Program-made: the position numbers and the translations under genes | Notes under the pieces: model-generated | Seen by the model: the letters and a program-made list of their open reading frames with translations, nothing else | The model's database searches: none | What the model was told of the DNA's origin: nothing | Source: Opitutales bacterium | Lineage (GTDB): Bacteria > Verrucomicrobiota > Verrucomicrobiia > Opitutales > JABSRG01 | Direction: 5' to 3' | Length of the DNA: 45,114 nt | NCBI GenBank assembly: GCA_049599475.1 | Contig: JBMYOQ010000032.1 | Span: 1-45,114 of the forward strand | Shown: piece after piece, positions 1-40,270 of the stretch | How positions within the stretch are numbered: the stretch's first letter is position 1 | How the letters are laid out: the number at the start of each line of letters is the position of its first letter

Positions 1-54
1 TCGCTTCAATTATTGTCTGGATGCGGGGGTAATTTGAAGACAGCCCCTAGTATT

Positions 55-3000
55 TTAATCTCTCCAATAATTATCTCTGTCAGGTCGAGATCCACCTAAA
101 GTTCTATTATAATAATCAAGACGATCTGAGGCTGACATATCTGGAGCTATACCGATTGAGTCAATGTGATTCACATGATCAAGATACCAATTAGTAATCG
201 CATCTCCTGCAAGGTCCATAGCGTCTAAGCCAAGTTGTATGTCACCGACAATCGGGAGAATACCTATTTTGTCGACAGAGTCTCCCTGAGCGGCATTTGC
301 ACCGCCGAGGATTGTAGCCCCGGCTACCGCATACCTTAGGAACGGTATCCTTTTTCCAGTATTTGAGATCCAGCTTTTCCCCGTTTTCTGAACTTTTTGA
401 AAACTAGCTTTACCCTTCGACTGATACCATTGTTCTACAGCGCCTGGCCCTCCTCCAACAGCATTGTTGAATCCCTTTATAAACTCATTGTCGGTGCCAG
501 TTTCTAGATGATCGACAAAAGCTTCTGCTAACTTCTTCTGTTGTTTGGAGCTCATATCTCCAACCTCAGAAGTCTTGAGCTTGTTGTCCTTAACATATCC
601 TTCTTTGAATTTCTCAAACTCTGCATCAACTTGAGCAGTGTAGCCAGTTAACCTGCCGTGCCTCTTGTAGTTGTGATCTTTCGCATCAATATTCGCTTTA
701 TCAAATACCTCCTGGGCCTCTTTGCCGAAACCTTGTTTGTCCCATAATTCCACCGGGTTCAGATGGTGGCCTTTCCCTTTTACCGTGTGATCAGCACCTG
801 TAACTCTCCTCAGCCCTTTCGGATCGAACATGGTCCACGGGTTTTGGACTACGTAAGTGTAAACATTCGGGCCGTCTACAAAGCCTAGGGGATCTCGGGT
901 GATGAAGACTCCGGCTTCTAGGTCGCGGTAGCGGAAGCCTTCATTGAGGAGACCGGTGGGGTCTTCGTCTTTGGTGTTGGCGCGTTGGCGGTCATCGTTG
1001 GTGCCGACTTCGGCAGTGCGTTTGCCGAAGGCTTCGTATTGGGCCTGCCATCCGATATCACCGAGTGGGTCGGTTTTTGCGACGACGTCTCCCCGACTGT
1101 TGTAGTGGTTGAAGGCTGGTGTGTCGGACCGGAGCGTGTAGAGGATACCTCCAATTCCGCCGCCGTAGTCGCTGCCTCGGATATACTCGACTTCTGGCGA
1201 TGATGATACGGTTGTTGTATGCTCCTGGACGGAGGTGCCGCCCGAGAATGAGAGGATCGTTAAGTCGCGGCCGGGGATTGCGCTTTCGTCGCGGACTACG
1301 CGTCTGAGACGTTGGTCATAGGCATAAGTGTAGTTTCCAGCGTCGGCTGTTCCGGTCTGGTAATCTAGAGCGACCAGGCGATTGTCATAGTCGTAGGTGT
1401 AAGTGTCGGTGTGGGTGCCGTCGCTCCGGGAGCTGCGGTTACCATTGGCATCGTAGGTGTAGCTTATATTTTGAGTGCCGTCCGATAGCGAGACGAGCTG
1501 GTTGCTGTTTGCTGTGCTAACGCTGCTGCCGTCTCCGAAGGTATAGGTCGTAGTAGAGTCGAGAACGGTGTCGATGTAAGTCCGTTTGGCAGTCCTATTG
1601 TGAGCGTTGTCGTAATCGTATTCAGTGCGGTTTGTGGCACCTCCTGAGATTGCGATTTCTTCAGCGTCGAGGCGATAGGTATCATCATAGGTGTTTGTGA
1701 TGACACGGTCGGTCAAATTCCCTAGAGGATAGAATTCTTCAATCTGCCGAACGTTCGACATTTTGTCATAAGCGTAGTGATATTCGGCGAAGGCTTGGAG
1801 TGCTGCTGGAGCGGTGTTGGTCGAAATCTCCTTGCGGCCGAGTATATCGAATTCGCATTTGATGAGGACGCCATTGGGGAGCGTCTTCTCTACGATATCG
1901 CCAGCGGGGTTGTAGCGGTACTGAGTAAGGCGTGTGCCATCGGTTAGGGTTTCGAGACGGTTGAGTACATCATATGTAGAAGCGATTACTCGTGACGTTT
2001 CCCCATAGGTGGTGTCGCGACGATTTCCAGCTTTGTCGTAGGTATATGTGTGCGTGACGCCGGCAGAAGTTTCTGTTTCGAGGCGATTCAGCGCATCGTA
2101 GGTAGAGCCCACTGCGCGCAAGGAGTCTATCTCGTTGGGGTACGTTACCGAGAGGATATTTCCATTGGCATCGTACGCGTAATCGCGGTTGTCGATATCG
2201 CGCCCGGTGAATAGGACGTGCTGGAGCCTGTTTAGCTCGTCATATTGATAGGTGGTATACTGGCCTATTTCATCGGTACGGCCATACATGAGGAGCGCAT
2301 TGTAATGAGATACGTGAGTGCGCTGGAGATCGGTTCCGATGTCCCAAATGGTGTGCGTCTTTCGTGAAAGGCCATCATAGCGAAAGGCTGTTTGCGCGCC
2401 TGCGCCATCGGTGACATGTGTTTGGTTGCCGATATCGTCATACTCGTATGCTACGAGAATGTCATCCGTATTGGGACTCCCTTCAATGGTCGATGGCTGA
2501 CCTGTAACCGGATTTGTCGCTGTGGTCGTAAGTCGATTTAGGGCATCGTAGAAATTTACGGTCAGGTTTTGCTCTGAGTCTGTGACTGATGTGATATTCG
2601 AATTTTTATCGTAGGTCGTCGTGGTGACTAAGGCTTGAGCACTCGCCTCTCCGAAGACGGGAACAGGGGCGGTCGTCGTGCTTCTTGGTCTATTTGCATT
2701 ATCAAACTCGATAACGGTCGTGAGGCCTCGAGTATCGGTGGTACCGATAACATTCCCTACCCCATCATAGTCTGTGAGCGTGGTTGGTCGGACGAGAGGT
2801 TGTGCGGGATCTGAGTAGTCGACAACGGCTGGGGCTTCTTCTTTTGTTTGGCGGTTTCGAGCATCGTAGGTGTAATCCCAACGATGACCGCGCGGATTGA
2901 TGGTCGCAGAGACATTGGAGGCCGCATCGTAGATCGTTTCGGTGAGTGGAGAACCTACCGATGTATCGTCTACCGGCTGCCGGTTGATGAGACCTGTATC

Positions 3001-6000
3001 AGGATCGGCCTGCCACACTTTAACTGGCCGCCCAGCCGAATCGTACTCCGTTTCGGTATGGTTGCCACGTGGATCGATTGCCAAATACGCGAGCCCGGTA
3101 CTCGAGTAGCGTGTGCTGGAGATAGTCTCTAGGGGAGTTTCGAATGCATCGCGAATTTCAATGACTCGACCCAGGCCGTCACGGGTCGTCTGTGTCTTCT
3201 TACCTAATGGGTCGAAGCTTTTAGAAGTGAGTGATTCCTTATCATTTACGATCGCGCCATAAGAAGTAGAAGAAAAGGCTGCCAAACCCGGCGCGTATTC
3301 AACTGTTGTATTCTTCTCTCGGTAGACCTTGTCATACACTATCGTGGTGGTGAATGTTTCAGTGCCTAGATTGGTGTGAAAAGCATCGTGCTGTATAATT
3401 TGAGTCGGTTTAAAACCTTCGCTTGCGAAGGCGCTAGCGCCCGGGTTTCGAAAATCTTCGTAAGAGTATTCCGTGTGGGTTCTCTCTGTAGATCCAGATA
3501 TCGCAGAGTTTCCGACTATCTCGTCTCCATTTCCGTCGATTGCAGTATCTTCGTAATTTGTATAGGTGTGCGTAAGCCGTTGTAGCTCGTCATAGAAATT
3601 CTGTGTGACGATTCCGCGAGGATCGGTGACGGATGTCAGCGAATTTGCTCTATTGTAGGTATAAGATGTTACAATATCTGCGGCGGTGATCTCACCTCGA
3701 TTATCATCTGCCAGGATCTGCGGCTCAAAATCGAAGGGAATGGAGGGCAAGCCCTCACCATCCATGTCTACAATCGTTCGGATTTTTCGGCCGAGATCAT
3801 CATAGTGATGCATGGTATGCCGGCCCTCTTCATCGATTTCGAGAGCTAGGTTTCCACTGTAATCGTAGATGTATCTCACGAAGGCTACGCGCTCCATCGT
3901 ATATGTCCCCGCGAGAGGATAAGTGACTTTTACCAGTCGATTTAACTTATCGTAAGTAAAGGTCGTGGTATGCCCTCTGGGATCGGTAACAGAGGTGCGA
4001 TTACCATTCGCATCATATTCATACGCTGTGGTCAGCGCGAGGCCATCTGGATCGACAATTTCCTGTTCAACGCGGCCAAGAGTGTCGGGAACGTATTGCG
4101 TAATTAAATCTACCTCCCAAGGTTGGCCGCTGATATTCTGATAGGCCTCGACTATCTTTCGGGTCATGAACTTTGGAAAAGTACCACTTCCGAAAATATA
4201 GTCTTCATCACTCAAGGTAACTCCTAATATGTCTTCAACCGTCTTGTCCGTCCGCCTTCCTAGGCTATCGACCTGAAATCTGGTCTCCGTGCCAAATTCA
4301 TCGACAATCTTAGACATGACTCGATAGTTTTCCGAGTAGTCGTAAGTAGTGACGCGTCCAAGAGCATCGGTCATACTGGTCGGGTCCGACCATTTGCTCA
4401 TCATGTCCGGGTAGGTGGCAGTCGATATACGTGACCCTGCACCAGTGCCACGGCCATCGTCAAACGCCCATTCTGTGGGATTGCCAGAGAAATCATTGAT
4501 GCTCTTAAGGCTCAGTCCCGAATTAGGATCGAAGGTAAATGTCTCGGTACCAATAGGCGTCTCCCCTTCATAGATACTACCATAGTAGTCTACGACCATT
4601 GTCTCGTAATAGAGGAGCCATTCACTTGAGCTGCCCGTTGAGCTATCTCCATAGGTGATATTTTTGTCTATAATCTCTCCGCCTACATCTTCAAATGAGT
4701 AGACTGTATAATTCCCCTCGGCATCCCTAATAATTGTCTCAACATTCGAAGCAGTGAACTTAGGACCGAACTCAAGAGACGTGTTTCCCTTAGAGAAAAA
4801 ACTCTCCTGCCCATGTGGAAGCGTTACCGCCTTGACCAATCTGGGTAGTCCATAGGTCTTATTGTAGTCAGACTGACTGCTAGAACCATCGTCTCCGTTG
4901 ATTTCCTGCAGCCTTTCATCAATTTCGTTCTGAACGTTCGCAGGTAGATGATTTATCGACACAGGAACATACACGGGACCACCTCCGCTTGCCGAGTAAC
5001 TGCTAACCGTTTGGTTTAGCTCATACTGAAATACATAGGAGTTTCCACGCTTATCTGTAATCTCTCTGATATTACCATGGAAGTAACTCGTTGGTGAGTC
5101 TGGATTCACCTCATCCGACTCCTCAGCGAAGCTGTAATCGTACTGCTTAGAGGTGCCGTCCGGATAATCGACCGATACGAGTTTCGTCACGTCATATCCA
5201 GCAAACCCTGTTTCGGTCACAGCAAATTCTGCTTCGGTCACATAATTAAACTCGATGGTGTTACCGCGCGGGTCAGTAATAGAATCAATCCTTCTGCAAT
5301 CGTCACTTCGCGAAATAGTGATGCTTTGACCTGGATAGTCATCAGAGCTAATTAAGGTTGGTATTAGTGAAACGGATGAGCCGCCATAGTCATATTTAAG
5401 AACGTTGCCAAACCGGTCTTGTACTCGAACCAAGCGCCAATAGGTATGCTTTTTTGTACTATCGCCGCCGTCCAGACGGTTAGAAGAATAATGGAACCAA
5501 GCATCCGTCGATTCATATGTAAGCGTGTTTCCATATTTCTTATGAAGTACGAGGTTGCTCCCCACTCGTTCTAAACGGTTTTCAAATGTCTTAGCATCCA
5601 CTAATGATGAAGGCCAAGGGAAGAATTTGCCATCGGCATCAATCCCGAATCGCTGAGAATGGCCATTTTCATCGACAACGTTGACGCTCAAAGGAGCTGT
5701 CATAATCCCGGACCCTAAGGTTTCTACTTTCTCGATATAAGAGCATATATTAGAACTCCACCCCGCGCCGAAGGGAAGCGTCAGGCGCTCATGAGGCCTC
5801 AGGCCTGAACGATCTGTCCAACTCAATTCACTTGCAGAGGCAGTCACGCTAAGCGCCAGCTCACTTGAGGCAAGGGGAACATAGACGTATGAAGTATCAT
5901 GCCGAAGGCTGAGATCGAATGCATCGATATACGTCTCTTCGCTCTCTAAGTCCTTTTCATCTTCTTCCTGCGGTTTCTCATCAGAAATAGGACGACCATT

Positions 6001-8310
6001 TAGAGCAATTTTGCGATAGCGCGGACCTACTGAATCTCTGCCAGAATAGCTTTCCGACCAACTTGTACTGGCGATAGGGATCAGGTAAGCTGTCTTGCCT
6101 GAGAAGGTATCAATTTGATCATCTGGAGCAGTTACATTAACGACTCCTAAAAGCCCTTCCGGGTCAATTTCTAAAAATCCAGAGGAATTGACAGTCGCGG
6201 TATAGTCATAATCAAGCTCCTTGTCCGCGGCCGTTGCGACGTGTTCGAGAGAAATCTCGTAAATCTGACCACCATTTAAGTTAACAGAGAAAGGCTCAGC
6301 GCCTCCAAAAGATTGAGAAATCACCCCTAGGTTCCCAATGTTTAATCTCCATCTCTCGGACTCGGATTCAGAATGATCACCAATCAATCCACTTACGGTA
6401 TACCCTCCACCGTACGAATAACATAGACCAACTGCACCATCATCATCACAAGCAAGCTCCCCAATATCACCGCAAGCAAGCTCTTCAATATCCGGACCGT
6501 TAAATTCCTCTGCGACAAAAGGAATACTCTCAGGGTCGGTGGGATCACTTCCATTTGCTATTTCGAAACCATCGGGATAGCCATCATGATCAGTATCCAA
6601 CTTATCAACATCTGAACCGTAAATGAATTCTGTGATAGTATCCGCTCCATCAAGATCCGGATCGATGACGAGGTCATCCGGAACCAATGGATTCAGATTT
6701 TCTTTACCGTATTCGTCAATATCAGCGATTAGATCACCATCGGTATCCCAGTATTGTGGATCCGTACCGGCTTGAAACTCCTGTAGATTGGTGAGCCCAT
6801 CCTCATCTAGATCCAATCCTGCATCGGAGGCATCAAAAGGGTCGAGTCCCGCATTCAATTCCCAAACGCCATTCATCCCATCCTGGTCTCCGTTTAACAC
6901 GTCCCATTCGATGATGAAGCGCTGAGAGCCATCGGTGACAAATTCAACGTAATGCCTCGTGTTACCTTGGTTTAAGACTTTGTCTAACTCAGTGGCTTCA
7001 TCTGATTCGTATATTGGTATACCATTCTGGGTTATTCTCTTAAGATATAGGCCAATTCCTGAGTCTTCAGTATATTCAACAATTCGCGCTGTTGACCATG
7101 AAAACTCCTGTCCTCGTGAAAACCAATTATCACCGATCCAACTCGCATTCACCGTGAGCTTCAGACGCCCTTGAAAGTACAACGAATCGACAATAACCCG
7201 AACTCTATCTAACTCCAATGCGTCTGTGCCGCGAAAGAATTCGGTAAAGTTGTCAAAGCCATCGGAGTCTTCGTCTGATTTCCCATCGAATACTAAATCG
7301 GCGAACAAATCTCGTTCCCAGTCGTCCGGTAGAAAATCGAAATCGGTATCAAGCCATGGAGTCATAAACACACTGAGAGCGCTTTTAACATCTTCCTCTT
7401 CCGTCTCTTCTGAGTAGGCTCGAATGAATGTAGGTGCAGCAAAGGAGCGCTTGGCCGGCTCACTTGTAGCGATGGCACCATCTGGATTAAAAATCCTAAA
7501 GCTTGTATTGCTGTGCTGGGATTGAAGATGAGTGATCAGTGTATCAGGATTTACGACAAATCCATCTTCCTTCTCGAAAATCGTAACGACCATATAGTCA
7601 CCTGGACCTGGCAATTCGAATTCGTAAAGAAACTTGTAGCGGTAGAGGGGACAAATTACATTCGGCGGTGAAATTCGCTCCGAGACGTAGGGCTCCACAC
7701 TCCCAATATCTAACTCAATAGCGTGATCGACAAACCCGCCGAAAGTATCAGATGTGTCCAAGGTAGACATATCCACCACATATATTTGAGGAATAGGAAA
7801 ATCTTCCTCATTAAAGAACTCAGCGATCCCATCGGGGTATCCGCTTCCCTCACGATAGTCTGTGGGTATTTGGATAACCCCGGAACCAAATAGAATCTCT
7901 AGATCAAGCTCGACCGTGTTGGATGCGATCGAATAACCCATTTTATCGACAAATTCAACGGCACCAGGGACAGTTATTGTAGATTCCACAAAGCGCCCAT
8001 CCCATGAAACTAAGTCAACGATAGTCTCCTCGTCCTCATCTCCGTCGCCTGGGATAAGAGTCGGTCCATCAGGACCTATCTCAAATTCAACAACAGTTCC
8101 GTCGCAAAGCGTAAACGTTGAAATGCCTGGACCGTCATGGAAGCTGTCGAGATTTGTATAACGATCTCCGGCACATTCTCCTTGTAGAACATATAGAGTC
8201 TGCACACCATCGCCCACAACCAGGTTAAAATCGCGAAAACTGAATGATTCAGTGTCTGCAAAGACAACGCTTGTCCAAAACAGGAGAGATATAAAAGACC
8301 GTCTCAACAT
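55..8310 (-). CDS. Signal-peptide-bearing Rhs/YD-repeat polymorphic toxin with N-terminal DxDxDG (TSP3-like) repeats and a putative HNH-superfamily (GHH/AHH-like) nuclease tip
   Basis: 2751-aa ORF. Begins MLRRSFISLLFWTSVVFA (signal-like). DxDxDG repeats at about 7210-7350 and 6530-6895. DUF6531-like PFGAGWS at 5755-5775. Many YD repeats (YDANGNRTSVTDPRG, YDKLNRL). Canonical core end RDPLGFVDGPNVYTYVVQNPWTMFDPKGL, with DPKGL at 811-825. The 251-aa tip contains GHHLNP and H-x4-H-x5-Y. Confidence 0.93.
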   Translation of the reverse strand: MLRRSFISLLFWTSVVFADTESFSFRDFNLVVGDGVQTLYVLQGECAGDRYTNLDSFHDGPGISTFTLCDGTVVEFEIGPDGPTLIPGDGDEDEETIVDLVSWDGRFVESTITVPGAVEFVDKMGYSIASNTVELDLEILFGSGVIQIPTDYREGSGYPDGIAEFFNEEDFPIPQIYVVDMSTLDTSDTFGGFVDHAIELDIGSVEPYVSERISPPNVICPLYRYKFLYEFELPGPGDYMVVTIFEKEDGFVVNPDTLITHLQSQHSNTSFRIFNPDGAIATSEPAKRSFAAPTFIRAYSEETEEEDVKSALSVFMTPWLDTDFDFLPDDWERDLFADLVFDGKSDEDSDGFDNFTEFFRGTDALELDRVRVIVDSLYFQGRLKLTVNASWIGDNWFSRGQEFSWSTARIVEYTEDSGIGLYLKRITQNGIPIYESDEATELDKVLNQGNTRHYVEFVTDGSQRFIIEWDVLNGDQDGMNGVWELNAGLDPFDASDAGLDLDEDGLTNLQEFQAGTDPQYWDTDGDLIADIDEYGKENLNPLVPDDLVIDPDLDGADTITEFIYGSDVDKLDTDHDGYPDGFEIANGSDPTDPESIPFVAEEFNGPDIEELACGDIGELACDDDGAVGLCYSYGGGYTVSGLIGDHSESESERWRLNIGNLGVISQSFGGAEPFSVNLNGGQIYEISLEHVATAADKELDYDYTATVNSSGFLEIDPEGLLGVVNVTAPDDQIDTFSGKTAYLIPIASTSWSESYSGRDSVGPRYRKIALNGRPISDEKPQEEDEKDLESEETYIDAFDLSLRHDTSYVYVPLASSELALSVTASASELSWTDRSGLRPHERLTLPFGAGWSSNICSYIEKVETLGSGIMTAPLSVNVVDENGHSQRFGIDADGKFFPWPSSLVDAKTFENRLERVGSNLVLHKKYGNTLTYESTDAWFHYSSNRLDGGDSTKKHTYWRLVRVQDRFGNVLKYDYGGSSVSLIPTLISSDDYPGQSITISRSDDCRRIDSITDPRGNTIEFNYVTEAEFAVTETGFAGYDVTKLVSVDYPDGTSKQYDYSFAEESDEVNPDSPTSYFHGNIREITDKRGNSYVFQYELNQTVSSYSASGGGPVYVPVSINHLPANVQNEIDERLQEINGDDGSSSQSDYNKTYGLPRLVKAVTLPHGQESFFSKGNTSLEFGPKFTASNVETIIRDAEGNYTVYSFEDVGGEIIDKNITYGDSSTGSSSEWLLYYETMVVDYYGSIYEGETPIGTETFTFDPNSGLSLKSINDFSGNPTEWAFDDGRGTGAGSRISTATYPDMMSKWSDPTSMTDALGRVTTYDYSENYRVMSKIVDEFGTETRFQVDSLGRRTDKTVEDILGVTLSDEDYIFGSGTFPKFMTRKIVEAYQNISGQPWEVDLITQYVPDTLGRVEQEIVDPDGLALTTAYEYDANGNRTSVTDPRGHTTTFTYDKLNRLVKVTYPLAGTYTMERVAFVRYIYDYSGNLALEIDEEGRHTMHHYDDLGRKIRTIVDMDGEGLPSIPFDFEPQILADDNRGEITAADIVTSYTYNRANSLTSVTDPRGIVTQNFYDELQRLTHTYTNYEDTAIDGNGDEIVGNSAISGSTERTHTEYSYEDFRNPGASAFASEGFKPTQIIQHDAFHTNLGTETFTTTIVYDKVYREKNTTVEYAPGLAAFSSTSYGAIVNDKESLTSKSFDPLGKKTQTTRDGLGRVIEIRDAFETPLETISSTRYSSTGLAYLAIDPRGNHTETEYDSAGRPVKVWQADPDTGLINRQPVDDTSVGSPLTETIYDAASNVSATINPRGHRWDYTYDARNRQTKEEAPAVVDYSDPAQPLVRPTTLTDYDGVGNVIGTTDTRGLTTVIEFDNANRPRSTTTAPVPVFGEASAQALVTTTTYDKNSNITSVTDSEQNLTVNFYDALNRLTTTATNPVTGQPSTIEGSPNTDDILVAYEYDDIGNQTHVTDGAGAQTAFRYDGLSRKTHTIWDIGTDLQRTHVSHYNALLMYGRTDEIGQYTTYQYDELNRLQHVLFTGRDIDNRDYAYDANGNILSVTYPNEIDSLRAVGSTYDALNRLETETSAGVTHTYTYDKAGNRRDTTYGETSRVIASTYDVLNRLETLTDGTRLTQYRYNPAGDIVEKTLPNGVLIKCEFDILGRKEISTNTAPAALQAFAEYHYAYDKMSNVRQIEEFYPLGNLTDRVITNTYDDTYRLDAEEIAISGGATNRTEYDYDNAHNRTAKRTYIDTVLDSTTTYTFGDGSSVSTANSNQLVSLSDGTQNISYTYDANGNRSSRSDGTHTDTYTYDYDNRLVALDYQTGTADAGNYTYAYDQRLRRVVRDESAIPGRDLTILSFSGGTSVQEHTTTVSSSPEVEYIRGSDYGGGIGGILYTLRSDTPAFNHYNSRGDVVAKTDPLGDIGWQAQYEAFGKRTAEVGTNDDRQRANTKDEDPTGLLNEGFRYRDLEAGVFITRDPLGFVDGPNVYTYVVQNPWTMFDPKGLRRVTGADHTVKGKGHHLNPVELWDKQGFGKEAQEVFDKANIDAKDHNYKRHGRLTGYTAQVDAEFEKFKEGYVKDNKLKTSEVGDMSSKQQKKLAEAFVDHLETGTDNEFIKGFNNAVGGGPGAVEQWYQSKGKASFQKVQKTGKSWISNTGKRIPFLRYAVAGATILGGANAAQGDSVDKIGILPIVGDIQLGLDAMDLAGDAITNWYLDHVNHIDSIGIAPDMSASDRLDYYNRTLGGSRPDRDNYWRD

Positions 8311-8315
8311 AGCGA

Positions 8316-8567
8316 CTACTTCTTAACAGGTGTCCAATCATACCAAATGTCGCGCGACTGTGAATGAAAGCCGTCTAACTCTTCAGTGATATCACGACCG
8401 TCAATTTTCACACCTTTGATCGACTTAGGCCTCTCCTTAGTCAAAGGAGGATTTGAACCTACTTTAAAGGGAGTGAACACCTGGGCATTCAGGCTTAAAA
8501 ACAGAAGGAGGAATGCAATAATGGCTGCACCCGTAAGTACAAAAGAATTTTTACTTAATGTTCTCAT
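8316..8567 (-). CDS. Small putative secreted or membrane-anchored hypothetical protein (83 aa)
   Basis: ATG start, basic N-terminus, hydrophobic stretch and LNA|Q-type cleavage site. Lies 1 nt after the upstream stop and 5 nt before the Rhs ATG. Confidence 0.65.
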   Translation of the reverse strand: MRTLSKNSFVLTGAAIIAFLLLFLSLNAQVFTPFKVGSNPPLTKERPKSIKGVKIDGRDITEELDGFHSQSRDIWYDWTPVKK

Positions 8568-8568
8568 G

Positions 8569-9504
8569 TTAATTATTGATCAACTTTTTCGCCCAATAAC
8601 GAAGGTTCGCGTGTGTTGTCGTGCTCAAAAAGCTCTGTAAGCCAGCGTTTACATCCGCATGCCATGTAGTATTCATCTTCAAGGCACCAAGGACCGCTAA
8701 CTGAATACCAACCGAAGGTTTCGGCTCTTCACTAAGAATAGCCACGGCTATGCGCGTGCTATCTAGGTCGCCAATTTCTCCCAGGACTTGTATCGCGCTG
8801 ATTCTGGATGCTTCGGAGTAAGTAACATCCTGTGCGATGATTGTGGCGACATTTTTGACAACCGAAAGCTCAAAATCTGGGCTCGTTGTGTAGAGGTAAA
8901 CTAGGTTGATAAATGAAGTCCCGCATAATGCGTGCTTTTCAAAAAGGCAATTTGCGAGGACCGACTGAAAAGCATCTCTGAGTTCCGGCAAATAATCTGG
9001 GCTCGCGCCCACCCAAGTCCGTTGATAAAAGTCTACGAAGTATTGCAAAACATATTCTCGCCAAATCAAGGATTGCGTGGTGTCCAACACAACATAGAGC
9101 ATCAACTCGCCAACCAAGAGTGGGTCCTCATCGCTATCTATGTATTTTACTAGTAAATCATTTTTGAGCGAGTAGCTTGATAATTCTCCGAAGGAGCTCG
9201 ATTGTATTGGTATATTATTTGAGAGAAAAAAGATGATGGCGGAGTGGTCTGCAGGACTCAATTCCTCGAATTCGATCTCACTCGCGATCTTGGCCCGAGT
9301 TATATAATCTGTAGAATTTTTGAGTAGCAATCGAATGTCTTCCGAAACGGTAATCGGATCAATAGACGGCACCTCAAAGGTATTCACAAAGCTCACACTT
9401 GGTGGTGGGTCCCCGGCTAATCGAGCTGTTACAGTTTCTCTGAAAACAGATCCATTGAGCAGGGATGCGCTCAGAAAGAATAAATATGCATATATAGTTT
9501 TCAT
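8569..9504 (-). CDS. Putative secreted all-helical protein with a C-terminal HEAT-like repeat region
   Basis: 311-aa ORF with signal-like MKTIYAYLFFLSASLLNG. HEAT-like motifs SRISAIQVLGEIGD and IQLAVLGALK. AGGAG upstream of the ATG; 5-nt gap to the previous gene. Confidence 0.75.
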   Translation of the reverse strand: MKTIYAYLFFLSASLLNGSVFRETVTARLAGDPPPSVSFVNTFEVPSIDPITVSEDIRLLLKNSTDYITRAKIASEIEFEELSPADHSAIIFFLSNNIPIQSSSFGELSSYSLKNDLLVKYIDSDEDPLLVGELMLYVVLDTTQSLIWREYVLQYFVDFYQRTWVGASPDYLPELRDAFQSVLANCLFEKHALCGTSFINLVYLYTTSPDFELSVVKNVATIIAQDVTYSEASRISAIQVLGEIGDLDSTRIAVAILSEEPKPSVGIQLAVLGALKMNTTWHADVNAGLQSFLSTTTHANLRYWAKKLINN

Positions 9505-9509
9505 AGCAG

Positions 9510-12500
9510 TTATCTCCTACCTATTTTTCCGACCAGCACTCCATCCTGGTAAACGTATGTACGGTGACATGCTGATCCTCGGACACTGTCCGGTTTTATG
9601 AGGACAAAATCGTATGTGCCTTCGTCAGAAAAATCAGACAATGCAATCTCTCGAACCCGCGTTCCATCGGCAAAAGTAACTCCCGCTTTGAAGATATCAA
9701 CCCTGACCACTGCATCTGCCGGGAAATCGGGAGAAATATAAAGAGTACTGGTAACCGAATGGGTCCCATCACCTAAATCATATTGGTTTAAATAACCTTC
9801 AACCGCTTCGACCACCCACAGTGAATTCATATCCACTGATGCAATAGGCGAACCATCGGGGAGTCGCGCTGTCAATGTATTGCCAGGAAACTCATTACTC
9901 GCACCAATTTCAAAACTCATATAATTCTCTCCACTAGAAGTAACCTCGGCAAGCGCTTGGCCTGCACTGACAGATATGGGGCTAGATATATTTTCCCACG
10001 ACCAATTCCTTTGCTGCTCAAGCCAAACATTGGGCGTCCGACTGACATCGGGAATATCCACTACATCTACTGAAATTAGCCGTGAATCCGTTTCACCTCC
10101 AGAATACGTAATATCCGCCGTGAGACTAAATCTGCCAGCTTCGGAGAATGTGTGAATTATCTCATCGCTTTCAGACAGCCCACTGTAAACCGAAGTATCT
10201 ATGGTTACTTGTCCGCTAGATCCTAAAAGGTCTGAGACCCTAAATTTGAGCTGTGACCCCACAGTGAGTGTCATTTCCTCCGGTCCATCGTCGGCAAACA
10301 GAACAATAGGTTCCCACGACACATCGATATTCTGCGCCAGGCCGCCATTTTGGTAATTTAGAGCAAAAGTCGTATTTGGTTCTGATAGCGCCACGCGAGC
10401 ATACCACTGGCTCTCCTCACTCCTCTTCAAGGTAGCGCCATTTGAGATGGTCATCATGCCTGGAAAGCGTGAGTAGCCTTCGAGCGAAACATGGGAAACA
10501 TGAGTAACAATATTATGCTCAAATGCACCTTCCTGAGCGTTCAAAACCGCGAGTTCCCAATCATCACGAAGGGCCGAACTTGCAAAATCTGGAGATTCTA
10601 CCCTTACATAATCAACCAGGATCGATCTCCCTCTGAATACATTATCCCATCGTAGATTGATAGTATGATTTCCCTCATTCAGGTATGGTGTCAGAAGCAC
10701 CTGATCCTGTGAGAATTCACCCTCCGCGATTTGCACATTATCAAGGTAATGTCCGTCGATCTTCGCCACAAAGAAAACTGGCATCCCAAGAGTCAACGAA
10801 GTCTCCAACCTTCGTCCGACCTTGTAGTGAATTTCATAAATACCCGGAACCGATACATTGAAATCAAAGGCCAATTCTCCATTGAGCGATGAGGAGTAGA
10901 TAGAATCACCACTAGTAACCCAGTCGCCCGCAACTGGAGTGGCTTCTCGACCGTTTATAGCAAGAATAGTCGACGTTGAAGTATACTCAGACACCAGCGG
11001 ATCCGACCCACGCACAAGAATTTCCTCTCCGTCGCTAACACCATCTCCATCCGTGTCTGCAAGGAGAGGGTTTGTAAGGTAAATCGTTGATTCATCCGTA
11101 TCGGAAAGACCGTCGAAATCAGTGTCTTGGAAATAATCTAAAAGTTGGACATCTGCCGAGACATAAATTTTGTCACCATCGGCAGAACTGAGATAAAAAC
11201 CAGCCACTGTATCAAACGCAAACTGGGTTGCCGATTCAGCAATAACGCTCCAAAGAATCCCGTCATCGGAGGTTTCAACTACAGTGAATACTTCTCCGCG
11301 AGATATTCTCAAATAAAGTCCCGGCAGGTAGTCTCCATAGTGCGTCGGTCCATTCTTAGAAAGATTCGCGCCCCCACTTGTTCGATCTGCTTGATAAAAT
11401 TTTTCTTTAACCCTGTAATAGCCAGCGAGCATTTTTGAGTTAGCGCCCACGTCATCACGTACCATTAGCCCAAGTTGCACATTATCTTTTTCAGTATCTA
11501 GGTCGGTTACGAGGAAAGTCATTGAATAACCACCAGAGAGCTCACGGTAAAAGAAGCTACTATCCTCGACTCCATCCCCTGCAGAAGTCAGCCGCCAAGA
11601 GTCTCCAAAAACGAATCCAAACCCTGGGTCGACACTTCGATAATCTGCGATGAGCCACGGACTCGGAAGATATCCATCTGGCGCCTCATCAGTATCCAAA
11701 GGATTCGTCTTAGCTCTAAATTCCTCAAGGTCACTAAAGCCGTCAGAGTCTGAATCGGCCAAGAGTGGATCTGTGCCAGTTTCGAACTCATCGAAATTAA
11801 GCAATCCATCCCCGTCGGCATCTAAAGCCCCATCATCTACCAACAAATCCAATCCATTTGAAAACTCCCATAAATCGTTCATTCCGTCGCTATCGGAGTC
11901 ATCATTATAAATATCACTACCGACCAGGCGTTCCTGTTCATTCAATAGACCATCGCCATCAAAATCCATGTTAGCCGGCTCTGCCGTAGAAACGGTCAAG
12001 TTATCGAAGGTCGCGGAGCTCGAGGATCCTACTTCTTGAAGAATCTCTAGGTGAGAAAAATGGACTAAATCTAGATTTATAAATGGAAGCTCCTGAGCAA
12101 TCAAAACACCGTTAACAAAGGCAGAAGCAGTCTTCTCTAAGTAATCCAGATAGAAGGCATATGTATTCACACCAGCGGCCAAACTATCCGGAGAAAAATC
12201 CAGCCATTGGTCGGTCGCTGAATCCCAGATCGAAACGCTCGATTCCTGTTTCTTTCCGATAGCGAATGCGTGGTTTGTAGAGACTGCAGCGGGCAATTCG
12301 CCTTCTATTAGGTCAGCATCAAACGATATCCATATGCGACGCATGTCCCCCACCCCAAACAAGCGTTTCGCTTCACTCGTGATTGGTCCGACATCGTCAA
12401 CACCTAAAGTCTCATCGTTTTGAATTTCGACAACACCAGCGGAAGTCCATCCGAGTTGACCATTTAATGGACCTTCCACATAGCCCTCGGCCAATGAGAA

Positions 12501-14159
12501 TTCCGTGCTCCAAGAATAAACACCTTCACCCTCCGGAGCCAATTGCACAGCGGACACATCGGCATTCAACGGATCTAATCCCCACTGGACTTCCGTGAAA
12601 TCTCCAATGCCATCGTTATCTGTATCGAAAATTAAAGGATTTGTGCCAAGGGGTGACTCTTCTTCATTAGTTAGCCCATCGCGATCATCATCCAACCCGA
12701 ATGGCTGCGTGCTCGATACCGACAAATCATCCAAATCGGTTTCTCCATAGATTTCCATTTGTGTTAGAAACGGCTTGGTCTGGATGAATGGGATCTCGGA
12801 AAAAACACGGGCTCCATTCACATAAAAATCTGTCCATTGATTCGCGTAATCGCTCTTCAAGGTAATCCGCATCCACCCACTTGCCGCGAGCGTATCAGCC
12901 GTCTGCCAGCGGAGCCCTTCGGGTTGAGAAGGATCATACACCCTCAGCCGCCCAAGCTCATCAAAGGCATATGCAGCACTCACATCCGCATCGATAACCG
13001 CATCCACAGTCGCCGGCGACGGGATCAACCAATGATCCAACCAAATTACAGAATTTCCCGAACCTTTCAAGAAACTAAACACTTCAGACGGACCACCGAC
13101 TGACAAATGATTATCTCCCGCATAAGCACTCCCTATCTCAACCGAGACGGCGTTGCCAACCACGGTCCATGCCCCAGTGGTGGTCACTGATCCGCTTGCC
13201 CATGACTCGAACCCTTCGAACAAAGGTAATTCGTTGAAAACAAATGGATCGGCCAGAGTGGGATCTGAGGAAATAGCAATCTCAGCACTGTCGCTGATCC
13301 CATCATCGTCGGTATCGGCATTGGTGCCCAGGGTTGACAATTGATACTCCTCCAAATTTGTCAGACCGTCGAAGTCGTAGTCAAAATTCCGTTGATTAAT
13401 GCTCGTGTCCAGGCCCTGTAGACTCAGCCAGGAATCCGGCAGACCGTCGTTCGCTGTATCAGCAAAAAGAGGATTGCTTTCCCCCGAATAGAAAAAATCG
13501 AGCCCAGTCGGATCATCGGCGTCCGAACCCAATTTGAAATGATTAAAACCATCTACACCTGCATCTAAAAACCCTAAATCGGTCGCGACAAACTCTCCAT
13601 CGACATACAAGTCCCATATTTTCCCGATATAATCCAAACGGTATGTGAGCCTCATCCAAGAATCGGCCACTCGCCCATTCAAACTTATCGAATTGCCCAC
13701 TTGAACCCACTGACCGCTGCCGAGACCATCACCATCAATCACGAAGATCCAGCCTTGTCCGCTTAGGTCAACAAACCCAGTAACACTGGCTTGATACGGG
13801 GCAATTGATTCGGGCAACTCCTCCTCAGCAACAACAACCGGTTTGACGTAAAAATCATACCAGCCCACCAGAGGAGGAACGGCTGACGAAAGCTCCAGGG
13901 TAGCCAAGCCTGAACCGCTCAGGGTGAGAGATTGGGCCCCCGAGGCCGCGTCCCCAGAAACGGCAGTCGATAATGACCCCGAAAACACCCAGTCAGACAA
14001 CTCAGATTGTGATCCAGTAGAAACGCCGTCACTCAGCTCAAAGTCATTCTCGTAAGGCACCTCAACGGACCACGCGATCGTGCAAGTGATCCACAAGAGC
14101 ACGAATGCTGAGCACAGTATTCTGACAGACTTCCGCAGTCTGAGCATAGAAAACATCAT
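9510..14159 (-). CDS. Large secreted acidic multidomain protein: repeated ConA/LamG-like beta-sandwich domains alternating with DxDxDG (TSP3-like) Ca-binding repeats
   Basis: 1549-aa ORF with an N-terminal signal-like segment. Four clusters of DxDxDGLxxxxE..GTxP..xD repeats. Three related domains (WMRLTYRLDY..LYVDG; WMRITLKSDY..FYVNG; YAFYLDY..AFVNG). Fold assignments are inferred by eye. Confidence 0.85.
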   Translation of the reverse strand: MMFSMLRLRKSVRILCSAFVLLWITCTIAWSVEVPYENDFELSDGVSTGSQSELSDWVFSGSLSTAVSGDAASGAQSLTLSGSGLATLELSSAVPPLVGWYDFYVKPVVVAEEELPESIAPYQASVTGFVDLSGQGWIFVIDGDGLGSGQWVQVGNSISLNGRVADSWMRLTYRLDYIGKIWDLYVDGEFVATDLGFLDAGVDGFNHFKLGSDADDPTGLDFFYSGESNPLFADTANDGLPDSWLSLQGLDTSINQRNFDYDFDGLTNLEEYQLSTLGTNADTDDDGISDSAEIAISSDPTLADPFVFNELPLFEGFESWASGSVTTTGAWTVVGNAVSVEIGSAYAGDNHLSVGGPSEVFSFLKGSGNSVIWLDHWLIPSPATVDAVIDADVSAAYAFDELGRLRVYDPSQPEGLRWQTADTLAASGWMRITLKSDYANQWTDFYVNGARVFSEIPFIQTKPFLTQMEIYGETDLDDLSVSSTQPFGLDDDRDGLTNEEESPLGTNPLIFDTDNDGIGDFTEVQWGLDPLNADVSAVQLAPEGEGVYSWSTEFSLAEGYVEGPLNGQLGWTSAGVVEIQNDETLGVDDVGPITSEAKRLFGVGDMRRIWISFDADLIEGELPAAVSTNHAFAIGKKQESSVSIWDSATDQWLDFSPDSLAAGVNTYAFYLDYLEKTASAFVNGVLIAQELPFINLDLVHFSHLEILQEVGSSSSATFDNLTVSTAEPANMDFDGDGLLNEQERLVGSDIYNDDSDSDGMNDLWEFSNGLDLLVDDGALDADGDGLLNFDEFETGTDPLLADSDSDGFSDLEEFRAKTNPLDTDEAPDGYLPSPWLIADYRSVDPGFGFVFGDSWRLTSAGDGVEDSSFFYRELSGGYSMTFLVTDLDTEKDNVQLGLMVRDDVGANSKMLAGYYRVKEKFYQADRTSGGANLSKNGPTHYGDYLPGLYLRISRGEVFTVVETSDDGILWSVIAESATQFAFDTVAGFYLSSADGDKIYVSADVQLLDYFQDTDFDGLSDTDESTIYLTNPLLADTDGDGVSDGEEILVRGSDPLVSEYTSTSTILAINGREATPVAGDWVTSGDSIYSSSLNGELAFDFNVSVPGIYEIHYKVGRRLETSLTLGMPVFFVAKIDGHYLDNVQIAEGEFSQDQVLLTPYLNEGNHTINLRWDNVFRGRSILVDYVRVESPDFASSALRDDWELAVLNAQEGAFEHNIVTHVSHVSLEGYSRFPGMMTISNGATLKRSEESQWYARVALSEPNTTFALNYQNGGLAQNIDVSWEPIVLFADDGPEEMTLTVGSQLKFRVSDLLGSSGQVTIDTSVYSGLSESDEIIHTFSEAGRFSLTADITYSGGETDSRLISVDVVDIPDVSRTPNVWLEQQRNWSWENISSPISVSAGQALAEVTSSGENYMSFEIGASNEFPGNTLTARLPDGSPIASVDMNSLWVVEAVEGYLNQYDLGDGTHSVTSTLYISPDFPADAVVRVDIFKAGVTFADGTRVREIALSDFSDEGTYDFVLIKPDSVRGSACHRTYVYQDGVLVGKIGRR

Positions 14160-14176
14160 GGGAATTATGCCCCGGT

Positions 14177-14374
14177 TTATGAGTTTTCTGTTGCCTTCGG
14201 CTTGTTAGATGTGCCCCGGGTCTTTACACGGGAACACAAAAATACCGACGAAATTATCATCCATAGACTCACCGAGCCGAGCATAATGAGAGTGCCTTTC
14301 GAAGGCTCACTCGCGGAAAGCGGAAGCGAGGACAAGAAGAAAACTAGAGACGAGAGTGAGAGCAGTTTATTCAT
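14177..14374 (-). CDS. 65-aa membrane peptide: signal peptide followed directly by an xEP-TM-basic (PEP-CTERM-like) segment
   Basis: MNKLLSLSSLVFFLSSLPLSA|SEPSKGTLIMLGSVSLWMIISSVFLCSRVKTR. First ORF after the AT-rich intergenic region, 17 nt upstream of the 1549-aa gene. Confidence 0.55.
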   Translation of the reverse strand: MNKLLSLSSLVFFLSSLPLSASEPSKGTLIMLGSVSLWMIISSVFLCSRVKTRGTSNKPKATENS

Positions 14375-14794
14375 GTTACTAACAAATTTATAAAACCTTT
14401 TAACACGAATCGCGCCTGTTTAAAGTTTTGTAAAGAAAAAGTTTAATAACCCATTCTCGAAACTGTTCGAAAATCCCCTAAACGCCTTGTTAATAGAGTA
14501 TTATAAGATTCATATTTTTTCGAACGAAGGGGGTTTTGGGCCGTGTTTTACCGGAATAGATTTAGTCAGCATGTTCAATAATGACCCCGCGCGCTGTCTA
14601 TTTCTCTAATCCTGCTATTTAATGATAATAAAATATCAAATATTTATGATGAAATTCCTAATACAGAAATACATACTGATAAATGCTTATCACTAACAGC
14701 TTATTGAAGCGCCGACGAACAAGACGAAGCACGAATTTAGAATCTGAAAAATTTATGATTGTCCGCCTCAGCTCAAAGCTACAATTTTCAAAGC
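14375..14794. promoter_or_regulatory. AT-rich divergent promoter region with two TGATA-N6-TATCA palindromes
   Basis: Non-coding, visibly AT-rich gap between divergent genes. tgata-ataaaa-tatca at 14623-14638 and tgata-aatgct-tatca at 14677-14692. Confidence 0.5.
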
Positions 14795-15223
14795 ATGAAG
14801 TCTTCTAAACACTTTTATGTTACCCTTCTGGTTTTGGCCCTGGGTGTAAACTCTGCGCTCGCGAGATTAAATGTCTCATTAACCGATGCTAACTGGAAGG
14901 ACGGCAAGGCCTCGCTTTCTCTTGAAGCTTCGAACGCAGGAGATTCGGCAATAACGGGAGCTCGCGTTTGGATCTTCCTTATGAACGATGATGGCAAAGT
15001 TGTCGGCAATCACGCGGAGTGGATCATCGGAGGCAAGCGACCTGAAGATAATCCGAATCCGAGTCTCGACGCAGGGGAAGAATCAACCTACGAGGTATCG
15101 TTCAAAAACGAGAAACCTTTCACCCAAGCACGCGTGACCTTCTCGAAACTTCTGGGAGAAGATAAAAAGCCTCTGAATCCTCGTAAGGCCGCGAGCGTGG
15201 TCGATAAAACGAGTGAAGGATGA
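14795..15223 (+). CDS. Small secreted Ig-like protein (FxLYD-domain-like)
   Basis: ATG at 14795 gives the signal peptide MKSSKHFYVTLLVLALGVNSALA. The pattern N.G...ITGARVWIFLMNDDGKVVG...LDAGEESTYEV resembles FxLYD-family proteins. Confidence 0.7.
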   Translation: MKSSKHFYVTLLVLALGVNSALARLNVSLTDANWKDGKASLSLEASNAGDSAITGARVWIFLMNDDGKVVGNHAEWIIGGKRPEDNPNPSLDAGEESTYEVSFKNEKPFTQARVTFSKLLGEDKKPLNPRKAASVVDKTSEG

Positions 15224-15867: not shown

Positions 15868-17226
15868 CTAGAATGATCCGCCTGTAGTCTTGTCGGTGAG
15901 TGGGATCATTTCGCCTTTGCGGAAGAGGGTTACTTGACCGGTGCTTCCTGAGACGACTATGGAGATACAATCGCAGGCGAGTGTGATGGCCGCTGCTGCA
16001 GCGTGGCGTGAGCCCAGGCCACTGGGGAGATCGTGTGCATAATCCGGTGCATGGATGAGCGATCCAGCACTTTCGAGCACTCCGTCTCCGCGGACGACGA
16101 AGGCGCCGTCGATGGTGGAGAGCTCTTTGACCGTTTCGTCCATAAAGGGGTTGAGGACATTTCGGTCTTCATCCTTGTATCCAAAAAATGGATTCAACAC
16201 GAGCGGCTTCGTAAATGGAAGGATCGATTGAGTTTCGCCGAGGACGAATAAACATCCCACGGGTCGCCCTTCTCTACCCTCTACAGCGAGCTCTGTAGCG
16301 ATACCGATGATACGCTCGACGGTCTCGGGTCGGACGCTCGATGGTAAGACCTTGGCGTCGATTGAAAGCAGGTTTCTAAACTCGCGCTCTATATCTACGA
16401 CGACGAGCGAGTCAAACTGGTTGCTCTGAGGGAGCCCTCCGACACAGCAGAGTCGCCAGTCGGGCTGAAAAATACCGCGGGTCAGTCCGATTAGCACGGC
16501 ACTGCGCAGCTGGGCCAAGCGACTTGCCGAAAATGATCTCACTTGGAGGACGGCGTCGACATTGGTCTTTTGCACATTGACGCCGGTCCCGCCGCCTTGG
16601 GTGATCAAGACTGTTTTGAACCCGGCGAATTTACGCGAAATTTCAATACCTCCGGCAAAGGTATCGCCAAATACGAGAATGGCTGAGCATTTCGCTCCTT
16701 TCGCGATCATCTCGGCTTCTTTGAGGATCAGGCGATTAAATTTATTATCCCGATGCTCTACCTTGTGTCCCTTGCCTCCGAGCGTTTCGCGCACCGCAGA
16801 GCGGTATGGGCCGATTTCGACGGCCCCATTCAAACGCTCCATCACCTTCGGGTCCTGGAACATACGCGCCAGCGAAGCCAACACGCTCAAGTAGTTGCGC
16901 GCATTAGGATGCGCTAAGAAAAGGAAGAGGTGGCGGATCTCGGAGTATTCGCGCTGACCTCCGTGCTCCAAACCCGCAGGGCATCTTCCGACTGCCAGAA
17001 TGTAGCGTTTCTTAAGAGGCACACGTAAGTGCGGCAGCGCTACGCCTTTACCGAGATAAGTGGTCATCGTAGCCTCGCGCTTGAGTAGACCGTCCAGCAA
17101 CTCTTCTTTGCTTACATCTTCGTCATCCAGTGCAACTGTATCCAGAAGCTCGGCAAGGGCCCCCTCGAGTGTAGTGCTCGAGATATCGACAATCCGTTTC
17201 TGAGAAATATGGGTGTCGAGGCGCAT
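15868..17226 (-). CDS. Diadenylate cyclase (DisA_N/DAC, CdaZ/DacZ-like) with an N-terminal PTS EIIA-like domain
   Basis: N-terminal REATMTTYLGKGVALPHLR (EIIA fru/ntr-type phospho-His motif, His66). C-terminal EGREGRPVG, DGAFVV (16102-16110) and GLGSRHAAA DAC motifs. Confidence 0.9.
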   Translation of the reverse strand: MRLDTHISQKRIVDISSTTLEGALAELLDTVALDDEDVSKEELLDGLLKREATMTTYLGKGVALPHLRVPLKKRYILAVGRCPAGLEHGGQREYSEIRHLFLFLAHPNARNYLSVLASLARMFQDPKVMERLNGAVEIGPYRSAVRETLGGKGHKVEHRDNKFNRLILKEAEMIAKGAKCSAILVFGDTFAGGIEISRKFAGFKTVLITQGGGTGVNVQKTNVDAVLQVRSFSASRLAQLRSAVLIGLTRGIFQPDWRLCCVGGLPQSNQFDSLVVVDIEREFRNLLSIDAKVLPSSVRPETVERIIGIATELAVEGREGRPVGCLFVLGETQSILPFTKPLVLNPFFGYKDEDRNVLNPFMDETVKELSTIDGAFVVRGDGVLESAGSLIHAPDYAHDLPSGLGSRHAAAAAITLACDCISIVVSGSTGQVTLFRKGEMIPLTDKTTGGSF

Positions 17227-39398: not shown

Positions 39399-40270
39399 CC
39401 CAAACCAATCCTTTCGGCCAGCACTTGAGCTAATTTTGGGTGTTCTGAGAAAAGGGGCGACATGTAGAGTTTTAAGCCCGGCATACGTTCTTCGACGCCT
39501 TCAATGATTTCTGCAACATCACCGCAGGGTCCGGCATGTCGGCCAGGGAGAAAGAAGAGCATGAGCACTCCAACAGCGCCCCCCTCAAAGCCATAAGCTT
39601 CAGGCGCATTTTCGAGCAACGGATCGCAAAATGCGTAGGCCTCCCCTTCCCGCCGCTCCATACTTGCTGGTTTAACCCTTTCACCCGGATGATTGGCTCG
39701 CCACCGAGTATTAAAATCTTCGGCGATTCGATCACGCACCTCAGCGACCTCCTTGCGTGGGGACCCGTGATCCACCAGCAGCCAATTTTTTATTTCCGGA
39801 TGATCACGTTTCAGCTGATGAGCAAAATCTTCCAAAATATCGAGCAGCCAGTCTGGTGTGTTTTCACCCCTCTGCACCAGGGGCCGGGCAATTTCCACCT
39901 TCAATCCCTCGCGTTTTTTGCTCAGAATACGAATACGCTCTGGCAAATATTCGGTGAGGGCCGCGCTCGGCCCAAAAAACAAAGGTTGGATATTAATATT
40001 TTTCTTTCCCGCCTCATAAGCCGCCTTGACCGAACGTTCAAAGGTCTGCGCGGGCTTTCCATCCAAAAGCTCTGGATCAATCTTACTCGAATGCAGTAAA
40101 CTCACTGGCAACACTTCGCGCCCGAGACGCTGGGATACATCTTTCGACAAAGCTCTCAGCATCAGGGTCGCTTCCGGGCGCAGCGACCCGTTATCGGTCA
40201 ACCAAAACAATTCGGATTCTGACGATTTATGAAACTCCCCTGCGAACGCGCTGTTGTTATCTTGGATCAT
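39377..40270 (-). CDS. CbiX/SirB-like class II chelatase-family protein (two-domain)
   Basis: LTDNGSLRPEA, PLFFGPS, LVDHGSP and FFLPGRHAG motifs. Start placed at ATG 40270 because the longer ORF overlaps pal. Confidence 0.8.
   Translation of the reverse strand: MIQDNNSAFAGEFHKSSESELFWLTDNGSLRPEATLMLRALSKDVSQRLGREVLPVSLLHSSKIDPELLDGKPAQTFERSVKAAYEAGKKNINIQPLFFGPSAALTEYLPERIRILSKKREGLKVEIARPLVQRGENTPDWLLDILEDFAHQLKRDHPEIKNWLLVDHGSPRKEVAEVRDRIAEDFNTRWRANHPGERVKPASMERREGEAYAFCDPLLENAPEAYGFEGGAVGVLMLFFLPGRHAGPCGDVAEIIEGVEERMPGLKLYMSPLFSEHPKLAQVLAERIGLGRMKDEG

Follow-up and report, generated by a model that had tools for sequence, protein, structure and literature searches.

The window analysed here, a stretch of 45,114 nt, is the entire contig C32 (JBMYOQ010000032.1) of an Opitutales bacterium with a genome of 4.68 Mb that is 96.6% complete. 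It contains an operon of five minus-strand open reading frames (ORFs), A–B–C–D–E, which encode proteins of 65, 1549, 311, 83 and 2751 aa separated by gaps of 17, 5, 1 and 5 nt, the last being a large Rhs toxin (Table 1). An original prediction, made from the DNA letters, had described this co-oriented set with the same lengths and coordinates and had noted a signal-peptide-like start on each protein. Judged by inspection and hydropathy (basic n-region, hydrophobic stretch and AxA-like site), such a segment is present at the N-terminus of all five, the weakest being that of C. The repeat type that was said to be shared by the two giant proteins is likewise recovered: Pfam TSP3_bac matches both, and the DxDxDG..E pattern occurs ten times in B and five times in E. 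As had also been claimed, no VgrG, PAAR, Hcp, TpsB, type I secretion system or TcA family is found with Pfam among the 25 window ORFs scanned. Neither VgrG nor Hcp was found in the host genome at its 96.6% completeness, with the control matching in Escherichia coli. With an Rhs core in E and no VgrG or Hcp in the genome, the description of the operon as a Sec-type Rhs locus independent of a type VI secretion system (T6SS) is upheld. A, C, D and the last 490 aa of B have no match in Pfam, NCBIfam or PADLOC. A sorting domain of the type IX secretion system was not matched in the operon proteins, and the search for SprA was without a match anywhere, controls included.

Table 1. Features of the operon and its flanks in the 45,114 nt window.
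Feature	Positions	Strand	Basis or remark
Insertion-sequence-like element, end portion	1..50		Multi-copy, ~875 bp, breaks contig
Gene E, Rhs toxin of 2751 aa, comprising a signal-like segment, an N-terminal extension of ~740 aa with TSP3 repeats, a YD shell (~760–2500) and a variable tip	55..8310	-	
Toxin tip, residues 2501–2751	58..810	-	Sequence
Rhs autoprotease-type motif DPxG-x19-DPxG (D2473, D2496)	814..894	-	Sequence; TIGR03696
Gene D, small protein of 83 aa, secreted or membrane-anchored; a single orthologue found	8316..8567	-	
Gene C, secreted protein of 311 aa, HEAT-like, unnamed family	8569..9504	-	Fold and profile
Gene B, 1549 aa secreted modular scaffold	9510..14159	-	Family, repeat and fold searches
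B terminal beta-sandwich ~1447–1549, conserved DG and GVTFxDG loops, Cys1531; predicted C-binding site	9513..9821	-	
B residues ~1060–1190, CBM6/35/36-type jelly roll (predicted)	10590..10982	-	
B residues 32–231, 309–487, 546–729, three copies of an unnamed beta-rich domain	11973..14066	-	
Gene A, 65 aa: signal-like segment, EPxxGTLIxxxS motif, hydrophobic helix, basic tail; candidate membrane anchor	14177..14374	-	
Upstream region, A to divergent gene	14375..14800		AT-rich, 34% GC

B is built up, in this order, from three ~190 aa domains, TSP3 repeats, a DUF1349-like domain (E 0.0016, below cut-off), a domain resembling a carbohydrate-binding module (CBM), an immunoglobulin (Ig)-like stalk and a terminal domain that is predicted to bind C. 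The repeated ~190 aa domain shows a weak likeness to CBM22 (E = 0.0017 to PDB entry 4xuo), which is a lead only. The conserved C-terminal region is modelled as all-beta with a predicted local distance difference test score (pLDDT) of 91.5, and a structure search with this model superimposes the CBM-like domain on 7ay3_A with a Z-score of 14.7 and a root-mean-square deviation of 2.5 over 120 aligned residues. The Ig-like domains have no match along their whole length in fold searches. For the last 182 aa the best Z-score is 8.4 (an S-layer Ig domain), and a thioester-domain protein reaches 8.2 over the first 82 residues only, the Cys-bearing part being excluded. An internal Cys–Gln thioester between C1531 and Q1538 is unlikely because these residues lie seven apart on one predicted strand. 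B was also considered as a VgrG-like spike, TcA or an enzyme; no such fold appears in the match list, an absence that is in itself inconclusive. Relatives of B exchange PA14, LamG and DUF1349 modules. The protein is thus predicted to be a chain of glycan-binding and Ig-like domains that likely binds sugar, and its modular folds and synteny agree with the scaffold or adhesin that had been envisaged. As for the proposed Ca2+-dependent assembly, the TSP3 repeats are present; they would be its sole basis, and they are common in the secreted proteins of the host genome. Cys1531 is the sole invariant column across 57 B sequences (57/57). It is the only cysteine of mature B, and in eight of the 57 sequences it is the single cysteine of the C-terminal region.

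The family of C has near-invariant residues at Asn115, Arg149, Tyr151, Gln154, Gly195 and Thr196. B(1044–1549) with C(20–311) was the one complex modelled, using alignments that we built ourselves, following up the pairwise modelling that had been suggested. The complex score is 0.86 versus 0.00 for the best control, at least 86% of the contacts agree between runs and the pLDDT of the partners is at least 86. The mark applied to this score is passed by 116 of 157 solved and two of 215 mismatched pairs, and it is roughly applicable here given our own alignments. On the side of B the modelled interface consists of Asp1464–Gly1465, the 1490–1502 loop and residues 1521–1531 including Cys1531, while C contributes a conserved groove. 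On both chains, conservation is higher in interface columns than elsewhere (0.53 versus 0.40 and 0.52 versus 0.40). C is therefore predicted to clamp the tip domain of B; the model supports binding and does not prove it. Of the chaperone or adaptor role given to the helical C, binding to B is supported by this prediction, and nothing indicates chaperoning of Rhs. We know of no complex resembling B–C. In three loci (L069, L028 and L075) an Ig-like DUF1573 domain that has a CGC motif is fused to C or follows B, a hint of thiol chemistry near the module.

E matches the Rhs families PF05593 and TIGR01643 and the Rhs-associated core TIGR03696. Family scans found no PAAR, no cell-wall-binding repeat family and no NHL match in it. 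In its tip GHH(2514–2516), Asn2540, His2546, His2551 and Tyr2557 occur in the motif order [AG]HH, N, H, H, Y that is given for Tox-AHH in PMC3482391 in the part consulted. The first match of the tip in the Atlas is an AHH 39% cluster (0.82; lead only). Together, these features make an AHH-type HNH-fold DNase the likely identity of the tip. A few bases past the stop codon of E lies the end of a ~875 bp element that has about twenty times the local depth and like ends and is present at 11 other contig ends. Since this element ends the contig here, the slot for an immunity gene after E is hidden from view. That the window is a whole contig ending in such a multi-copy element had been overlooked by the original prediction.

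Next, the distribution of the module was determined. Single-protein pattern scans gave no match for C in genome contigs or for a B orthologue in metagenome contigs, and profile searches were required. A profile of the C-terminal region of B matched 56 of 401 genomes of the phylum (40 of 184 genera), and dropping five weak partial matches left 51. The C profile, built from 128 of 332 relatives among 50% cluster representatives, matched 75 of the 401 genomes; removing 20 whose E exceeded 1e-11, most of them short matches of a generic HEAT kind, left 55. Both proteins occur in 43 genomes. An Rhs core is found in 261 of the 401 genomes and in 47 of the 51 with B. Sixty-five loci were compared, consisting of 60 of the 92 B matches and five added ones; own-genome rows, second gene pieces, weak partials and some contig-end matches were left out. 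C is co-oriented with B in 43 of them (31 directly after B, four directly before it and eight further down). An Rhs gene follows B in 40 of the 65 loci and in 36 of the 48 with at least 2.5 kb downstream, L017 having an orphan core only. The remaining 12 comprise eight loci with a non-Rhs signal-peptide protein and an adjacent partner gene, one DUF1573–C fusion and three with divergent B. Loci L067, L071 and L072 encode divergent B-like proteins of ~820 aa followed by secreted proteins of ~490 aa and no toxin; at least two of them lack the terminal Cys. These loci are a sister module.

The B-associated Rhs bodies fall into several groups, and the 24 full-length tips are unrelated save for one pair and shared HINT domains. 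Known families among 38 tips scanned include Tae4, Tox-WTIP, CdiA tRNase, DUF4329 and PT-HINT, with Tae4, Tox-WTIP, CdiA tRNase and JAB among the full-length ones, and most of the 38 matched none. A gene of 60–222 aa follows the tip in all 23 loci with DNA beyond it; in 15 its product has a hydrophobic N-terminus, and the genes after nuclease or HINT tips are cytoplasm-like. Orphan tip cassettes trail L041, L051, L057 and L059. One genome (G229:C1, L057–L059) has three near-identical B copies. Each of them comes with C, with an Rhs that differs between the copies, with small secreted proteins rich in Cys and with extended orphan arrays; this genome has 84 Rhs-core candidates. The conserved synteny with variable tips that had been anticipated across Verrucomicrobiota is therefore found for B and C beside Rhs. 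The proposed five-gene unit is not, and the conserved unit is B, C, a signal-peptide effector and a cognate gene. B and C co-occur with Rhs elsewhere, while A is patchy and D is near-private, being present in one other genome. Rhs as the toxin likewise holds for 36 of the 48 loci and fails for the eight with non-Rhs secreted cargo.

Loci of this composition represent a polymorphic toxin system that is presumably aimed at bacteria. Glycan-binding folds, the HExxH motifs in some of the non-Rhs cargoes of L036 and L060 and the marine source could also fit a system that targets eukaryotes such as algae or grazers, or that degrades polymers. We find this very improbable: a cognate small gene follows every tip, a form of self-protection that implies bacterial targets, and the tips include a peptidoglycan amidase (Tae4) and a tRNase.

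Our preferred explanation, to which we give a probability of roughly 0.55, is that the Rhs toxin is exported by Sec with a dedicated two-protein carrier, B acting as a glycan-binding stalk and C as a HEAT-like clamp. Judging from their N-termini, A–E would all reach the periplasm via Sec. There, B is predicted to form a string of CBM-like and Ig-like domains with Ca2+-binding TSP3 spacers and, where it has the repeated N-terminal domain, would likely be kept at the membrane by peptide A, as gene linkage suggests. C would bind the terminal domain of B near the invariant Cys as an assembly chaperone or adaptor. The effector, Rhs or other, would be loaded onto the tip of B, likely via its Cys-bearing N-terminus, the link possibly being a disulfide or else strand exchange. 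The loaded complex would likely exit by a type II-type secretin, after which it would bind the surface glycans of a neighbour; the host genome encodes four secretins, three exosortases and six Rhs cores. By analogy with known Rhs proteins the shell would cleave itself and free the tip, which in E is likely a DNase of AHH type. Immunity would come from the gene that follows each effector, and tips would be swapped by recombination with orphan cassettes.

Loading via the effector N-terminus is suggested by a tally of cysteines based on a crude cleavage rule, in which five of 54 rows were dropped as divergent or lacking a signal. A Cys within 30 residues of the crude cleavage site is present in 38 of 49 first effectors, compared with two of 37 C and five of 36 B proteins. 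Several observations weigh against the carrier model. Five of the 49 effectors lack any Cys in the first 60 residues, and E itself has an atypical N-terminus in which Cys46 and Cys69 may pair together. Cys1531 is located in the predicted C interface, where it may be shielded, or it may pair inside B in Cys-richer relatives. The effector bodies that accompany B are of at least five unrelated types, and this diversity fits poorly with a single binding surface. Contact of the effector with B or C lies outside the modelled pair and is something that we infer, and the signal peptides of the module are assigned by inspection and hydropathy alone. The E tip has no Pfam match, PF14412 included, at E 10. 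Of the loci compared, 13 with sufficient DNA and nine short ones have no C, as do eight of the 51 genomes with B. Most Rhs proteins of the phylum need neither B nor C, and the co-occurrence of B and C is overstated by the kinship of the genomes.

These points bear on an alternative arrangement in which B–C would be an adhesin plus a dedicated periplasmic chaperone for its folding, serving cell contact, and the co-transcribed Rhs would be exported and act separately with no physical link. B does resemble a fibrillar adhesin, the sole modelled contact is that between B and C, the effector bodies are highly varied and the Rhs proteins of the phylum mostly occur without B. On the other hand, B with the terminal Cys almost always adjoins a secreted effector and a cognate gene (44 of 48 loci), and two of the four exceptions lack the terminal Cys. 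An early Cys is also common to the effectors. In L060 (219–7150), amid non-Rhs effector/partner pairs, the last 78 residues of B recur as a separate ORF that overlaps the start of a further effector, as if this domain were part of the cassette. We therefore regard an adhesin with an independent toxin as rather unlikely.

The dedicated-carrier reading can be extended to the doubtful, more ambitious suggestion that B–C is the core of a new Verrucomicrobiota delivery class, combining a Sec-exported glycan-homing stalk, the C clamp, disulfide-loaded effectors tagged with an N-terminal Cys, swappable lectin modules and A as a new membrane-sorting tail. B–C would then be the functional counterpart of VgrG–adaptor pairs without an injection machine, its cargo would range from Rhs cages to peptidases and small Cys-rich toxins, and the lectin modules would choose the target. 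For the question of how the signal-peptide Rhs and teneurin-like toxins of diderms reach their target without an injection machine, the locus offers two defined partners that can be tested, together with the interface predicted between them and one invariant residue. Roughly one genome in eight of a phylum that is abundant in marine, soil and gut habitats has the module, which probably moves between orders and carries dozens of toxin tips that belong to no known class. It also provides a context for two protein families without a name and for a new motif of membrane tails.

Outside this core, A and D are real genes because their proportion of nonsynonymous differences (pN) is far below that of synonymous ones (pS): 0.21 versus 0.74 for A and a paralogue with 72% identity, and 0.22 versus 0.82 for D and its orthologue in genome G637 with 61% identity. 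A has eight copies in its own genome and strong matches in six of 400 other genomes of the class. It adjoins proteins with the repeated N-terminal domain of B in six of seven own-genome cases, the seventh starting at a contig edge, and in G147, G072 and G637 an A-type tail terminates passenger proteins of 220–250 aa just upstream of B. A is likely to tether the repeated domain of B to the membrane or to serve as its sorting tail. Identical copies of A lie at contig ends (C115:508–1758 and C24:47195–47377), the one on C115 being divergent from a lone C-family gene. The short motif, membrane helix, basic tail and position at the end of a passenger are reminiscent of PEP-CTERM tails, as is the presence of exosortases. 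Membership was nevertheless rejected by profile: A has no NCBIfam match at E 10, it scores between -1.3 and 2.4 bits against 23 own PEP-CTERM tails, under many of 67 control tails, and the hhalign probability is 2%. It further differs in that the first Pro is mostly missing and a passenger is often lacking.

The helix and basic tail of A, which fit the inner membrane, would also suit a periplasmic or envelope-retained B–C holder in which the toxin is kept until the cell lyses or vesicles are released. No outer-membrane transporter is present in the loci, and teneurin-like toxins, in the part of their description consulted, are likewise without obvious delivery machinery (10.1101/2025.11.11.687626). 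Such retention is nonetheless improbable, as the CBM-like, PA14 and LamG domains of B relatives fit better outside the cell and A is missing from most B loci searched.

D and the N-terminal extension of E are found elsewhere only in G637, which belongs to another order. There the cassette comprises A with a passenger, B (64% identity), C (75%), D (as above), the E body (78%) and the tip (28%), followed by an immunity-like gene of 142–154 aa, for whose product no relative was found in the host genome, and then by transposase-like genes. The housekeeping proteins HemB and Ppk are 55% and 52% identical between host and G637, the B region is 27–29% identical among family-mates, and the GC content at third codon positions of B–E is 0.42–0.48 versus 0.54–0.61 in five neighbour genes. 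Because the cassette exceeds HemB and Ppk in identity, B of its family-mates is low and the codon composition deviates, horizontal passage between the two lineages is likely. The same comparison bears on whether C might be a HEAT-repeat immunity protein with unrelated genes for neighbours. Imm-HEAT proteins are known, Verrucomicrobia included (PMC3482391, in the part consulted), but C stays conserved in G637 while the tip diverges, is kept whatever the tip, comes after B rather than after the toxin, starts with a signal-like segment and, by prediction, binds B. It neither follows a tip nor varies with it, and we consider this explanation to be close to negligible.

In the own genome, contig C4 has the same layout, A–B–C–Rhs–small gene, the body of its Rhs being unrelated and the tip of HINT type, and C12 has an A–B pair at its end. 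Contig C59 carries A, a protein with a B-like N-terminus and a giant Rhs of 3239 aa with a LamG/TSP3 N-terminus; a 345 aa tail-fibre-like protein precedes this Rhs (L003). On C90 the repeated domain of B is fused in cis to another giant Rhs of more than 2972 aa, again with a LamG/TSP3 N-terminus. Going by their motif, we take the giant Rhs proteins of C59 and C90 to be of SpvB type. The Rhs genes of C112 and C63 have an upstream pair that differs from B–C: in L005 (C112:162–9970) and L006 (C63:3421–12663) a 267/294 aa protein with a YFWP/NFWP end occurs with a 1186/1036 aa Ig/NIDO/TSP3 protein. This layout before a signal-peptide Rhs is possibly a second undescribed accessory pair. Promoter patterns in the region upstream of A (Table 1) are at chance level, and so are terminator patterns. 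The product of the divergent gene there (14759–15223) is a secreted protein of 154 aa that matches FxLYD weakly, and a PTS EIIA–DacZ_P–diadenylate cyclase fusion lies further upstream of the operon (15868–17226). Two ORFs, 41189–44929 (1246 aa) and 39536–40099 (187 aa), have no Pfam family above cut-off and adjoin an OmpA-domain gene.

Rhs proteins of the T6SS come with VgrG/PAAR and an EagR chaperone. They share with the present locus the Rhs cage and the gene order carrier–adaptor–toxin–immunity, the immunity gene being presumed here. They differ in that here PAAR is missing from the operon and VgrG and Hcp from the genome (EagR was not searched genome-wide) and the parts have signal peptides; family and fold searches show B and C to be unrelated to VgrG and EagR. 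Tc (ABC) toxins combine a separate binding component with an Rhs cage, and a binding protein apart from the cage is also seen here. In contrast, B, C and E contain neither a TcA-like nor an SpvB domain by Pfam (TcA was not searched genome-wide), B is an all-beta modular stalk and presumed cognate immunity genes are present in B–C loci. The Bacillus WapA/WapI pair, from a monoderm, involves a Sec-exported YD toxin with a variable tip and wall-binding repeats on the same chain. E resembles WapA in export and tip, lacks such repeats and is alone in having B and C as partners.

Sec-exported YD toxins had been tied chiefly to WapA in the original prediction, which is too narrow. In Table 1 of PMC3482391 Sec and the type II secretion system are given as a default route of export, combined with RHS repeats and present in all bacteria, without signature neighbouring genes. 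These toxins and our loci have in common a signal peptide, RHS repeats, a variable tip, orphan cassettes and, presumably, a downstream immunity gene; conserved secreted B and C accompanying both Rhs and non-Rhs cargo are particular to our loci. Bacterial teneurin-like toxins, as far as the consulted part of 10.1101/2025.11.11.687626 goes, are similar in their Sec-exported YD shell, adhesion domains, polymorphic tip, cognate immunity (presumed for our loci) and want of a known delivery machine. Their YD shell is preceded by TTR, TIP, FN-plug and NHL domains. There, adhesion and anchoring reside on the toxin chain, whereas here they lie on a separate B with adaptor C. The similarity of E to 9pt5/9ifo is confined to the end of the YD shell (residues ~2205–2510), the N-terminal part of E being outside the folded portion. 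Rhs proteins in genomes of the Planctomycetes–Verrucomicrobia–Chlamydiae group are mentioned in the consulted parts of PMC8920140 and PMC12057145 without a B–C module. The module is absent from the family libraries and literature searched. This scope did not take in subscription journals or the PMC3482391 supplements, where its families may figure as unnamed neighbours. No described system matched the gene set, as had been foreseen. Sec-exported Rhs toxins are thus known, and what is undescribed is the B–C accessory module that travels with them.

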